NCBI GenBank assembly: GCA_026982475.1 | Contig: JALSHB010000130.1 | Coordinates: 1 to 62,290, forward strand | Direction: 5' to 3' | DNA: 62,290 bases | Origin: Chromatiales bacterium | Lineage (GTDB): Bacteria; Pseudomonadota; Gammaproteobacteria; SZUA-152 | Part shown: piece by piece, positions 6,601-7,394 of the stretch | Layout: each line of letters begins with the position of its first letter | How positions within the stretch are numbered: position 1 is the first letter of the stretch | Program-made: the position numbers and the translations under genes | Notes under the pieces: model-generated | Seen by the model: the letters and a program-made list of their open reading frames with translations, nothing else | Databases searched by the model: none | Told to the model about the DNA's origin: nothing

Positions 6601-7394
6601 TGCGCCGGATCATCGACGAAAAGTGGCTCAAGGCCAGCGCCGTGGTGGGCTTCTTCCCCGCCAACGCCGTGGACCACGACGACATCGAGATCTACGACGT
6701 ACAAGGAGGTACGAGTGCCGCGGGAGACAGGATGTCGGGAGCGGCCTCGGATGAGACCCGCAGCGAGGTGCGCCTGGTGCTGCACAACCTGCGCCAGCAG
6801 GAAGAAAAGCCCGGCGGCAAGCCCAACCGCTGCCTCACCGATTTCATCGCACCGAAAGAGACCGGCCTCAAGGACTACATCGGCGCCTTCGCCGTCACCA
6901 CCGGCATCGGCATCGACGCGCACATCGCCCGCTTCGAGGCCGACCACGACGACTACCACGCGATCATGCTCAAGGCCCTGGCCGACCGCCTCGCCGAGGC
7001 CTTCGCCGAGCGCCTGCACGAGCGCGTGCGCCGGGAATTCTGGGCCTACGCCGACGAGGAAGACCTCGACAAGCAGTCCCTGATCAAGGAACGCTATCGC
7101 GGCATCCGCCCCGCCGCCGGCTACCCCGCCTCGCCCGACCACACGGAAAAGGACCTGTTGTGGGAGCTGCTGGACGCCGAGCACAACACCGGCATCCAGC
7201 TCACCGAATCCAAGGCCATGGTGCCCACGGCGGCGGTCAGCGGGCTCTACTACGCCCACCCCGACGCCAGCTACTTCGCCGTCGGCAAGATCAATCAGGA
7301 CCAGGTCAAGGACTACGCCCGCCGCAAGGGCATGAGCCTGCGCGACACGGAGCGCTGGCTGGCGCCCAATCTGGGTTACACCTCGGAAGAGTAG
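3663..7394 (+). CDS. metH: Cobalamin-dependent methionine synthase
   Basis: Motifs [32 protein letters not shown] (cobalamin-binding DxHxxG) and the C-terminal activation domain. Confidence 0.98.
6696..6746 (+). repeat. 51-nt in-frame palindromic insertion in metH with GGA-loop hairpins
   Basis: Adds [17 protein letters not shown] inside DDIEIY-x-DETR; atypical codons; two hairpins. Confidence 0.75.

Follow-up and report, generated by a model that had tools for sequence, protein, structure and literature searches.

A probable REP/RPE-like palindromic mini-element, inserted in frame in metH of a Chromatiales bacterium and in other genes across Gammaproteobacteria

Results and discussion

Positions 6696-6746 of the window (the whole 62,290-nt stretch of DNA from a Chromatiales bacterium, contig JALSHB010000130.1) are very probably a copy of a two-hairpin, non-autonomous 'coding palindrome', a REP/RPE-like mini-element that has spread over many gammaproteobacterial families. 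As a selfish element of this kind, it would slip in frame into essential genes and leave them again exactly. The gene and the element are located as follows.

3597..7394, + strand: metH, cobalamin-dependent methionine synthase, 1265 aa (ORF list, translation, Pfam, and PDB 1MSK match)
6696..6746, + strand: 51-nt element, 17 codons, in metH (covariance model R1, 82.4 bits, E 2.3e-18; empty allele; gap in the 1MSK alignment)
6695, + strand: pyrimidine just 5' of the element, which may reflect a target preference or else belong to the mobile unit as its first base

The insert in metH

The predicted protein has the Pfam domains S-methyl_trans, Pterin_bind, B12-binding_2, B12-binding, and Met_synt_B12, and it matches E. 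coli MetH (PDB 1MSK) with an E value of 3.6e-112. The insert (GAC GTA CAA GGA GGT ACG AGT GCC GCG GGA GAC AGG ATG TCG GGA GCG GCC) lies in the Met_synt_B12 activation domain (residues 955-1245 by Pfam), 3.1 kb inside the ORF and far from any ribosome binding site. A first-pass annotation, made from the letters of the window, had described 17 extra codons here, and the alignment with 1MSK bears this out with a gap of exactly 17 residues between DIEIY and RDETR. The 51-nt limits given there are also those set independently by the empty allele (see below), within a 1-nt ambiguity that makes 6695-6745 equally possible. The codons, which had been called foreign to a GC3-rich gene, are indeed so: GC3 is 10/17 in the insert versus 0.953 in the remaining 1248 metH codons, and GGA occurs three times in the insert versus 0/89 among the Gly codons elsewhere.

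The insert is present in five metH matches of 639-699 nt, those of the source genome (G000) and of four relatives of the same genus, whereas 24 other relatives yield a single, shorter full-length match (579-600 nt); two relatives yield split matches. At the metH site the insert is restricted to this one genus, where its lengths are 13, 15, 17, and 33 residues. In an AF2 model of the MetH region based on a 30-sequence alignment (mean pLDDT 89.2), residues 114-125, within the insert (110-126), are the only stretch below 50 pLDDT, a low value that partly reflects the presence of the insert in just five of the 30 aligned sequences. This stretch lies between strands 105-109 and 134-139. The insert is thereby modelled as a low-confidence loop joining two beta strands, in agreement with the surface loop that had been suggested. 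Prediction from the single sequence gave a pLDDT of 36.5.

Hairpins and covariation

The + strand RNA of the insert has an MFE of -21.7 kcal/mol (z -2.47), and 3 of 200 shuffles are equally good. The MFE fold reproduces the structure drawn in the first-pass annotation, two hairpins with GGA in four loops.

6699..6712, + strand: hairpin 1, a SELEX-type CsrA-like site, with stem 6699-6702/6709-6712 (GUAC/GUAC) and hexaloop AAGGAG at 6703-6708 (MFE fold)
6717..6745, + strand: hairpin 2, with outer stem 6717-6721/6741-6745 (MFE fold, pair counts, and position profile)

Within hairpin 2, the outer stem is followed by the internal loops (GGGA at 6722-6725 and at 6737-6740), the inner stem 6726-6728/6734-6736 (GAC/GUC, a rare variant), and the apical loop AGGAU at 6729-6733, which with its closing pair reads CAGGAUG and resembles the CsrB repeat. 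Since both strands of the internal loop are GGGA, the asymmetry is strand-specific.

Across the element family, all three stems covary and the four GGA-bearing loops are constant. The hairpin 1 stem, which lies outside the search pattern, changes from copy to copy as UA 73/CG 39/GC 9 at one pair and AU 76/GC 26/CG 11 at another. For the three stems together, in 127 matches from an alignment fitted to the covariance model and with many loci chosen by a pattern covering hairpin 2, 98.4% of 1494 cells are paired and 154 cells are changed on both sides, a result reached in none of 500 shuffles. Of 30 model-found copies, 27, 24, 26, and 25, respectively, retain GGA in the four loops.

Distribution of the element

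In the source genome, the covariance model finds four strong copies (74.7-85.2 bits, the next best match having 24 bits), and nhmmer with a four-copy seed found the same four copies in this genome and no more. They sit in metH, hom, dnaG, and a phage-type gene. The genome search recommended in the first-pass annotation thus yields three copies beyond metH, with 84-91% identity and in unrelated genes, and all four are on the sense strand and in one frame.

Of 41 genomes, the source genome and its relatives, 22 match at E<=1e-3; among relatives of the same family the figure is 19 of 24. In a class sample, where each family is represented by one genome, 21 of 150 other gammaproteobacterial families match at E<=1e-8. 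In a phylum sample, the matches are confined to two of 150 genomes, both of another class in the same phylum and both of family f167. An exact-pattern scan of genome contigs returned at least 119 stretches, the carriers being Gammaproteobacteria by their sequence-record names. Cultured strains are among them: Sedimenticola hydrogenitrophicus SB48, Lysobacter koreensis CCUG 55491, Halomonas cerina CECT 7282, Gilvimarinus xylanilyticus HB14, Fluviicoccus keumensis DSM 105135, and Nitrosomonas eutropha Nm57. Element copies across the Gammaproteobacteria number hundreds, at 1-26 per genome (18 in G012). The dispersed, translatable mini-element that had been suspected is therefore a reality in this class. 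The hosts identified by Pfam include MetH, Hom, DnaG, Tgt, class-I aaRS, ClpB, DnaE, NrdA, BipA, GcvT, MetE, HsdM, and phage primases. Copies also exist outside genes, and some are nested.

Viral contigs gave two stretches, one of which (L207) coincides in gene and copy with that on C122 of the source genome. The plasmids gave just one chance-level 29-nt match, and the E. coli genomes no match to the element. One stretch from a Udaeobacter record (L056) fits the pattern without hairpin 1 and is probably unrelated.

Two side observations concern the surroundings of individual copies. Three Sedimenticola copies (L065, L108, and L126) have an extended repeat of about 100-150 nt around them. Some copies closely precede a start codon, as L120 does at 16 nt from a nuoD-like GTG; these cases are anecdotal.

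Reading frame and encoded peptide

The frame was assessed for 59 copies from genomes other than the source genome in which homology spans the insert; these represent 44 distinct gene sites. The +0 frame is used at 34 sites, the -0 frame at five, the -1 frame at four, and the +1 frame at one (binomial p 1.5e-18 versus 1/6). The sense-strand, in-frame bias that had been anticipated is thus evident, and the analogy drawn with Rickettsia palindromic elements is apt. The antisense copies in genes (9/44 sites) look as intact as the sense copies. The length is divisible by three in 63 of 64 coding copies versus 81 of 102 others.

In the main frame (GAY-GYA-CAG-GGA...) the element reads D-A/V-Q-G-x-A/T-S-V/A-A-G-G-R-x-P-G-A-T/A, a small peptide rich in Gly, Ala, Ser, and Pro. 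The bias in frame and strand would mostly result from purifying selection in favour of the peptide that does least harm.

Mobility and decay

The empty metH allele skips from 6694 to 6746, that is, exactly 51 nt with one shared letter, and joins ATC TAC to TCG GAT. It is seen in two contigs from other samples, X4 (9237 nt; two differences in about 550 nt) and X5, which are without exactly these 51 nt; a third contig, X3, carries the metH element, and all three come from one study. The difference of exactly 51 nt between near-identical contigs indicates recent movement of the element. G006 and the other genera, without exception, also have clean empty sites in metH.

There is no target-site duplication, and in 130 distinct 51-nt copies the flanks are uninformative beyond positions -1 and -2. 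Position -1 is C in 94 copies, T in 36, and a purine in none, and position -2 is a purine in 102. The 5' end of the element is GACG in 72 of the 130, GATG in 31, GCCG or GCTG in 20, and GTAG in none.

The orthologous copies in metH of sister species are decaying roughly neutrally, near the synonymous rate. Identity to the source-genome copy is 36/51 in G003, 26/39 in G007, and 28/45 in G002, with flank third positions at 0.74-0.81, and GGA loops and stems have been lost from the copies of three sister species. The source genome and G004 have kept their metH copy nearly intact, with 47/51 positions identical when counted by eye and 44/51 in a codon alignment, versus 0.82 at flank third positions. 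The same-site copies in dnaG and tgt are near-consensus although their host proteins are just 53-85% identical. A single old insertion followed by purely neutral decay would not account for these sites, which need hot-spot re-insertion, copy correction, or selection.

The empty metH allele would have arisen by precise excision, which is favoured over a fresh insertion at an old site since the insert is common to four sister species, all with one and the same rare variant of the stem.

Resemblance to CsrA sites

Most SELEX ligands of CsrA have a 4-bp stem with a hexaloop. Two motifs are described for CsrA, the SELEX consensus RUACARGGAUGU and the CsrB repeat CAGGA(U/A/C)G (PMC7652899). The 11/12 match of the metH copy (GUACAAGGAGGU) to the SELEX consensus, noted in the first-pass annotation, is confirmed, and the resemblance proves stronger than was seen there. 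The background of the source genome (6.0 million 12-mers) contains 31 matches at 11/12 and none at 12/12, while for the 14-mer GTACAAGGAGGTAC the window has one occurrence versus 0.03 expected. In 132 copies, element positions 4-15 match at 12/12 in 14, at 11/12 in 29, and at 10/12 in 51, and the family consensus of hairpin 1, GUACAGGGAUGU, equals RUACARGGAUGU. The apex of hairpin 2, CAGGA(U/C/A)G, equals the CsrB repeat in 19 of the 30 model-found copies. GGA at element positions 10-12 and 35-37 is spaced 25 nt apart, within the 10-63 nt between sites that a CsrA dimer bridges, and CLIP-seq places CsrA deep within coding regions (PMC7652899). The sense RNA thus presents a SELEX-type and a CsrB-type site, and judging by these motifs it may well bind CsrA.

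That CsrA binding is also the reason for the conservation of the loops is less likely than the binding itself, and must be considered doubtful. Under such an explanation the element would be a mobile docking module whose loops are conserved for the recruitment of a CsrA dimer to the sense RNA; invaded mRNAs would be wired into the Csr/Rsm regulon, CsrA would be titrated, or CsrA would be a host factor for persistence. We regard this as unlikely, despite several features that speak for it besides the 12/12 matches absent from the background, the SELEX-like stem and hexaloop of hairpin 1, the apex of hairpin 2, and the spacing. These are the retention of GGA in four loops, the strand-specific asymmetry of the GGGA loops, the sense-strand bias, and a tally of mismatches in the element copies of 26 G-U versus 13 A-C. 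Moreover, csrA, the presence of which in the source genome had been named as a check, was found there and in 5/5 other carriers tested, including both outside the class; the gene is, however, so common in the class that its co-occurrence says little.

Other observations count against a docking module. The neutral decay of the metH copies, with loops and stems lost near the neutral rate in three of five species, argues against a maintained regulatory role, and a near-identical strain does without the copy. The metH copy is also 3.1 kb from the start codon. Genomes hold few copies, mostly in moderately expressed genes, and the four of the source genome would make a poor sponge for CsrA. The antisense copies in genes look equally intact, and CsrA leaves the single frame and the multiple-of-three lengths unexplained. 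A known Csr/Rsm sRNA for comparison was not found in the source genome, where the RsmZ, RsmY, and CsrB models (RF00166, RF00195, and RF00018) gave nothing over the cut-off. It is equally conceivable that the conserved loops serve as the recognition signal of the mobilising enzyme. A stretch on C76 dense in CA(N)GGANG, considered as a Csr sponge RNA, proved to be an acidic repeat inside an ORF.

Other explanations

It is very unlikely that the element is a selected peptide module, in which the 17-residue Gly/Ala/Ser/Pro peptide would be functional (for instance as a flexible linker, a binding epitope, or a signal for a protease or for modification) and spread by recombination. The strong single-frame bias and the conserved peptide pattern would be expected of such a module, but the conservation is at the nucleotide level and includes third positions, for example GGA kept despite 95% GC3. 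Compensatory changes in the stems replace amino acids: codon 5 can encode S, C, R, G, or W, and codon 6 A or T. Some copies are read in another frame or lie outside genes, and the orthologous peptides decay.

Removal at the level of RNA or translation, by intron-like excision or ribosomal bypass that leaves the protein unchanged, is highly improbable. Ribosomal bypass is known from T4 gene 60 and the mitochondrial byp elements, which have take-off and landing codons, and the structured 51-nt insert with its three in-frame GGA codons is superficially similar. Removal would not, however, require multiple-of-three lengths in 63/64 copies or a single frame at 34/44 sites, and decayed copies are still open and in frame. 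The insert has no stop codon and no fitting take-off or landing context, and the Rfam scan of window positions 6600-6850 (E<=10) gave chance-level matches only, with none to a ribozyme or intron family. The RNA runs contain only 0.04 of the sampled words.

Finally, an ordinary lineage-specific MetH indel or loop expansion, by local duplication or slippage and without a repeat family, would fit the restriction of the insert to one genus and its variable length at the metH site, but is refuted by the further copies that this genome has in unrelated genes, the matches in relatives, and the pattern scan of contigs with hundreds of copies elsewhere, as well as by covarying stems and foreign codons.

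Comparison with known systems and a possible transposase

The REP/RPE-like mini-element favoured here shares features with several known systems. The Rickettsia palindromic elements (RPE-1 and relatives) are palindromic mini-elements that lie in frame in unrelated, often essential genes; their conserved peptide is thought to occupy surface loops, and a transposase of their own is absent (MITE review PMC10969869; PMC3733652). The present element, compared here with the description of RPEs, resembles them in its in-frame entry into unrelated genes with a conserved peptide. It differs in size (51 nt versus about 100-150 bp for RPEs of Rickettsia/Rickettsiales, PMC10969869), in its two unlike small hairpins, in its loops with GGA motifs, and in the exact empty allele in a near-identical strain. 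It also occurs in free-living Gammaproteobacteria of at least 21 sampled families rather than in a single alphaproteobacterial genus.

A second comparison is with REPs and the REPIN/RAYT system. GTAG and CGTC REPs are short stem-loop repeats, some in head-to-head pairs and some intragenic (uvrA, dnaE, and tRNA synthetases), and CGTC REPs are without a dedicated flanking transposase (Di Nocera et al. 2013, PMC3733652). The 5' GACG seen in 72 of 130 element copies is CGTC on the other strand, and carriers in the class sample always have a Y1 transposase. The CGTC REPs have a single stem of 8-9 bp with a 4-5 nt loop and the GTAG REPs one of 5-13 bp (PMC3733652, Table 1). In contrast, the element has two hairpins, the first with a 4-bp stem and a 6-nt loop, the second with stems of 5 bp and 3 bp separated by 4x4 internal loops and closed by a loop of 5 nt. 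By that table it is set apart from the CGTC REPs, but it may overlap a minor family in the same paper (PMC3733652). The element is low in copy number (1-26), mostly intragenic where this can be judged, and hardly varies in sequence from family to family, in contrast to the usually species-specific REPs. Unlike the situation with GTAG-type REPs, a Y1/RAYT gene flanked by the element was not found in the source genome or in five relatives.

IS200/IS605 elements and PATEs make no target duplication, insert 3' of a fixed flank base, have hairpins near their ends, are excised seamlessly, and depend on a Y1 HUH transposase. The element is similar in the lack of a target duplication, the seamless empty site, the pyrimidine at -1, the hairpins near its ends, and the presence of Y1 in the genome. 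Its two hairpins, however, are unlike each other, and no autonomous parent was found. The target signal may differ too: those elements insert 3' of a specific tetra- or pentanucleotide, and here a pyrimidine at -1, usually after a purine at -2, is all that is constrained. With the CsrB/RsmZ-type sRNAs and SELEX ligands the element shares GGA in short hairpin loops, its two sites being 25 nt apart; it differs from CsrB/RsmZ in being embedded in reading frames and translated, in being mobile as DNA rather than an sRNA gene, and in matching no Rfam family in the scan of window positions 6600-6850.

A trans-acting Y1 transposase (IS200/RAYT-like) might move the element by single-strand 'peel and paste', a mechanism that we put forward tentatively. 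The source genome has five matches to PF01797 (Y1), and in the class sample PF01797 is found in 21/21 carriers versus 66/129 non-carriers (Fisher 4.4e-6), a co-occurrence that is a correlation only. The control family rve is also enriched (18/21 carriers versus 82/129 non-carriers, p 0.049), so the association with Y1 is partly a general effect of genomes rich in mobile DNA. Near the five Y1 genes of the source genome, the covariance model with filters off gave nothing better than E 0.3, and none of the Y1 matches in G007, G001, G009, G012, and G014 adjoins a copy found by the model. G012 has 18 copies, yet its Y1 match is just a 23.5-bit fragment. An autonomous parent element with these ends was not found at the Y1 loci of the source genome and the five relatives.

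Implications

The invasion of essential genes by in-frame palindromes, best known from Rickettsia, is widespread in free-living Gammaproteobacteria, and one nearly invariant 51-nt unit is common to many families. The copies show where, in nature, core enzymes such as MetH, DnaG, DnaE, NrdA, aaRS, and ClpB have loops that tolerate insertions, and 17-residue indels in such proteins are mobile characters, not phylogenetic markers. The live presence/absence polymorphism in metH makes the chemistry of transposition, with no duplication and exact excision, testable.

There is, in addition, a small chance that the element is a transposable CsrA-docking cassette, the invariant SELEX-type and CsrB-type loops and the two GGGA loops having evolved to recruit CsrA to the invaded mRNA. 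If so, the Gammaproteobacteria would carry a mobile, in-frame, precisely excisable switch for membership in the Csr/Rsm regulon; alternatively, CsrA would be a host factor that makes the element tolerable in essential mRNAs. If the loops with the CsrA consensus are functional, the element would be the first example of a post-transcriptional regulatory cassette that is mobile and acts from within reading frames.

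The insert in metH

The element is a 51-nt, 17-codon insert with two hairpins, the second of which has an outer and an inner stem. Its host gene in the window is:

3597-7394, + strand: metH ORF, 1265 aa, a complete cobalamin-dependent methionine synthase (Pfam)

Window positions 6696-6746 fall within the MetH activation domain (Pfam), and the gap in the alignment with E. coli MetH (PDB 1MSK) is exactly 17 residues, between DIEIY and RDETR. The E. coli segment quoted in the first-pass annotation and the size given there for the insert are both correct by this alignment. The insert codons are, as was also claimed, foreign to the host gene: GC3 is 10/17 in the insert versus 0.953 over the other 1248 metH codons, and GGA occurs three times in the insert versus 0 of 89 among the remaining metH glycines. 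The computed RNA fold (-21.7 kcal/mol, z -2.47, equally good in 3 of 200 shuffles) is the same as the one originally drawn. In an AlphaFold2 model of the activation domain, based on an alignment of 30 relatives' sequences, the mean pLDDT is 89.2, and the sole stretch below 50 (residues 114-125) lies inside the insert (110-126), which is flanked by strands 105-109 and 134-139; the low pLDDT of the insert arises in part because just five aligned sequences have it.

A second Met (MSKTLEQLL...) occurs 22 codons downstream of the listed metH start (window 3597-3662). This ATG may be the true start; it resembles the usual MetH N-terminus.

A dispersed repeat family

The whole assembly of the genome holding the window (G000; 224 contigs, 3.0 Mb, 64% GC, the window being contig C130) was searched with the insert by short-word BLASTN, which gave three more partial matches. 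Under a covariance model, R1 (58 columns, 12 pairs), built on the four copies, these reach 74.7-85.2 bits; the next-best place in the genome reaches 24 bits. The dispersal supposed at first pass is thus confirmed, with four copies in this genome. Each of the four is inside a long ORF, in sense orientation, and they share one frame relative to the element.

Copies of the element in G000
Copy 1: metH, window 6696-6746, + strand (Pfam)
Copy 2: homoserine dehydrogenase, sense (Pfam)
Copy 3: DnaG primase, sense (Pfam)
Copy 4: C-terminus of a zinc-ribbon (UPF0547) protein, C122:1910-1960, sense, four codons before the stop

Contig C122 is 2.7 kb long, and the same zinc-ribbon gene with its copy is found on an IMG/VR viral contig (L207:2602-2652) and in comparison genome G001 (locus L017). 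Horizontal spread of the element could use the viral-contig gene as a vehicle.

Among 41 genomes (40 relatives and G000), 22 have an element match at E <= 1e-3; within the same family the figure is 19 of 24. The number of matches in a genome reaches 26, and some form tandem arrays of period 51. The exact degenerate hairpin 2 pattern occurs in at least 119 stretches of one-genome-per-species contigs; by record title the matches listed come from a wide range of gammaproteobacterial groups, among them Lysobacter, Rhodanobacter, Arenimonas, Sedimenticola, Thiohalophilus, Acidiferrobacterales, Halomonas, Gilvimarinus, Photobacterium, Fluviicoccus and Nitrosomonas. An even class sample, with a single genome for each family, gave matches (E <= 1e-8) in 21 of 150 families, at 1-14 copies apiece; in a phylum-wide sample just 2 of 150 match, both from one family of another class. 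A 428-kb contig in a record titled 'uncultured Halobacteria archaeon' (L050) has one copy with a full score (75.5 bits) and another that scores lower; unless this contig was mislabelled or mis-binned, the element extends outside bacteria.

Structure and variants

The profile of 130 distinct 51-nt copies is GAY GYR CAN GGA NGY RCN ARU GYC GCG GGA GGC AGG ANG CCG GGA GCG RCC. The three stems covary over 127 matches: 98.4% of 1494 cells pair, compensatory changes occur at 10 of the 12 pairs, and both sides are changed in 154 cells, a value reached in 0 of 500 shuffles. The alignment used here is itself a fit to the model, and its loci were selected with the hairpin 2 pattern; stem 1, which is outside the search pattern, covaries too (UA 73 / CG 39 / GC 9; AU 76 / GC 26 / CG 11). 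The loops are almost invariant (C-A-N-G-G-A-N-G, GGGA, C-A-G-G-A-N-G, GGGA). The base 5' of the element is a pyrimidine in all 130 copies and the preceding base mostly a purine; no remaining flank signal or target duplication was found across these copies.

Among the variants of the element are 69-nt forms and 102-nt nested forms. The former (23 codons, e.g. DAQGRALAKGPASVAGGRTPGAT) have 18 additional bases around hairpin 1, still a multiple of three, and occur at L053, L071, L129, L132 and L134 (76-nt model matches). In the nested copies (L124, L134, L080, L053, L054, L160 and the metH copy of comparison genome G004, L172), a forward element lies within a reverse (or same-sense) copy, near the hairpin 2 apex. 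Nested 102-nt (34-codon) inserts keep the frame, and the G004 metH copy contains a nested degenerate 48-nt copy. Insertion thus seems to favour the hairpin of the element itself.

At L065, L108 (Sedimenticola hydrogenitrophicus) and L126, a larger repeat of 100-150 nt surrounds the copy, GTAGGAGCGCC...[element]ACTCCTAC, and looks like a GTAG-type REP with the element inserted. At L032:1418-1852 (G017:C1) and L025:950-1235 (G020:C115), 50-nt copies interrupt tandem partial duplicates of the tRNA-Ser(GGA) 5' half, where they follow the GGA anticodon immediately, within the anticodon loop; a short distance downstream is the intact tRNA-Ser(GGA) gene (ARAGORN), and a reverse copy is found alongside the 50-nt copies.

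Coding context

All stop-to-stop frames at 166 model matches were translated with the element masked and compared with G000 by tblastn. Homology spans the insert in 64 copies. Five rows from G000 or near-identical to it (L001-L004, L017) were removed, because their antisense frames self-match, which leaves 59 copies at 44 distinct gene sites. The sense-strand, in-frame bias for which the first-pass annotation suggested a test is pronounced: the frame is +0 at 34 of these sites, -0 at 5, -1 at 4 and +1 at 1 (binomial p 1.5e-18 vs 1/6, 5e-13 vs 1/4). Of the 64 coding copies, 63 have a length that is a multiple of three, versus 81 of 102 others.

The hosts (Pfam) include class-I tRNA synthetases, ClpB, GcvT, P-type ATPase, BipA, DnaE, NrdA, Tgt (two sites), MetE, GlnE, YhdP, Mur ligase, aminotransferase, HsdM methylases and phage-type primases; those in antisense frames include phosphoglucomutase and ManC. 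The frame +0 peptide is D-A/V-Q-G-x-A/T-S-V/A-A-G-G-R-x-P-G-A-T/A, and the peptides of other open frames are highly charged, basic or hydrophobic.

Comparison with known elements

Literature searches with the DNA and peptide strings of the element gave nothing relevant. A 2024 MITE review, in its passages on RPEs, treats these as the exceptional in-frame case, similar cases elsewhere being conjectured only (PMC10969869). The REPs of Di Nocera et al. (2013) are tagged with GTAG or CGTC; some are intragenic, and those with CGTC have no dedicated transposase (PMC3733652). Going by the parts of that paper on these families, they are the nearest known kind to the element. In 72 of 130 copies the 5' end of the element is GACG, which reads CGTC on the other strand, but its architecture is outside Table 1 of the paper. 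It is by the Table 1 description that the element is set apart from these families, and an earlier listing elsewhere in the paper is possible. Searches joining REP and CsrA gave CsrA papers only, and those joining REPIN/RAYT and in-frame gave PMC3733652 and otherwise no description of the element.

History at metH

Of 30 MetH loci taken from relatives, 17 were aligned. The insert is present at this metH codon in five same-genus genomes (G000, G003, G004, G007 and G002), and absent from G006, of the same genus, and from 11 aligned genomes of other genera. Full-length metH matches are 639-699 nt in the five with the insert and 579-600 nt in the other 24. A single ancestral insertion is favoured by a rare state of stem 3 common to all five copies: A at position 32 or U at 40, seen in 9 and 7, respectively, of the 130 copies.

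The metH copy is almost intact in G000 and G004, while loops and stems are lost in G003, G007 and G002, in which element identity to G000 is 36/51, 26/39 and 28/45, and flank third-position identity 0.81, 0.74 and 0.76, respectively. These values suggest that the orthologous copies decay roughly neutrally, in frame throughout.

Public DNA contigs were compared with window 6400-7000. A contig of sequencing run X4 (9237 nt, depth 24.6, 2 differing letters over ~550 nt compared) and DNA of run X5 skip exactly 51 nt, from 6694 to 6746 with one shared letter, and have the empty-allele junction ATC TAC/TCG GAT, which indicates that the element has moved recently. Filled and empty alleles all come from one study, in which run X3 has the element (803-nt contig, 1 differing letter); two other runs, X1 and X2, may have supplied the window itself. 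X7, from another study, has a ~95%-identical relative without the element. The empty allele and G006 are read here as precise loss, because sister species have the insert too; the alternative is a fresh insertion at an old site.

The X4 and X5 samples also have an element copy, with 7 differences, matched to window 6695-6746. Its flanks (GFQVFSLGTR and KITEEGVTFR) are those of tgt site 1, where G000 has no copy.

Resemblance to CsrA targets

The first-pass annotation had proposed that the element may be a mobile module, comparable to RPEs, that makes its host mRNA a CsrA target or sponge. According to the sections of PMC7652899 on binding sites, the hairpin loops of CsrB contain CAGGA(U/A/C)G, SELEX gave the consensus RUACARGGAUGU, as a rule in a hexaloop on a stem of at most 4 pairs, sites 10-63 nt apart are bridged by a CsrA dimer, and CLIP-seq finds CsrA binding deep in coding regions. 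Of 132 copies of the element, 14 agree with the SELEX consensus at 12/12 over positions 4-15, 29 at 11/12 and 51 at 10/12; among 6.0 million background 12-mers of G000, 0 match at 12/12 and 31 at 11/12. The majority consensus GUACAGGGAUGU agrees with the SELEX consensus at every position, the hairpin 2 apex is a CsrB repeat, and the spacing between the two sites is 25 nt. csrA, whose presence was in question, was found in G000 and in 5/5 further carriers tested; a search for a Csr/Rsm sRNA for comparison found no known one.

Because the element closely fits the CsrB/SELEX motifs and spacing, it seems likely that CsrA would bind its RNA in vitro. A maintained CsrA-based regulatory role at metH, however, is argued against by the neutral decay of the orthologous copies, by the existence of the empty allele, by the position of the copy 3.1 kb into the ORF, by the low copy number of the element and by the intactness of its antisense copies. 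Moreover, CsrA accounts for neither the single frame nor the codon-multiple length.

A GGA-motif density scan of G000 also brought up a long ORF (C76:4700-5230) with a highly repetitive acidic Asp/Arg/Glu/Ser/Met-rich segment (repeats such as DDREDSMSDREDSM).

Candidate mobiliser and recurrent sites

What is seen of the element resembles DNA moved by Y1 (HUH) single-strand transposases, which is excised exactly, leaves no target duplication, and has a fixed base in its flank and a hairpin at each end. There are five PF01797 (Y1) matches in G000. In the class draw used for the element counts, judged by genome handles, PF01797 (E <= 1e-8) is present in 21/21 carriers vs 66/129 non-carriers (Fisher 4.4e-6), and the Y1 protein of G000 contig C156, as query, finds matches in 18/21 vs 48/129 (p 3.3e-5); for the control family rve the values are 18/21 vs 82/129 (p 0.049). 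The 129 non-carriers include two genomes flagged as unpublished (G140 and G063), and the counts depend on these two to that degree. No Y1 gene adjoining an element copy was found, and comparison genome G012 has 18 mostly weak copies, yet Y1 merely as a fragment. That a Y1 (HUH) single-strand transposase moves the element is a tentative proposal from these associations, and somewhat doubtful.

Same-site copies near the consensus are found in tgt (six genomes), at a second tgt site (three) and in dnaG (three), in host proteins just 53-85% identical to those of G000. Since these are not predicted by one old insertion followed by neutral decay, another process must be involved, be it recurrent insertion into preferred sites, correction between copies or nucleotide-level selection.
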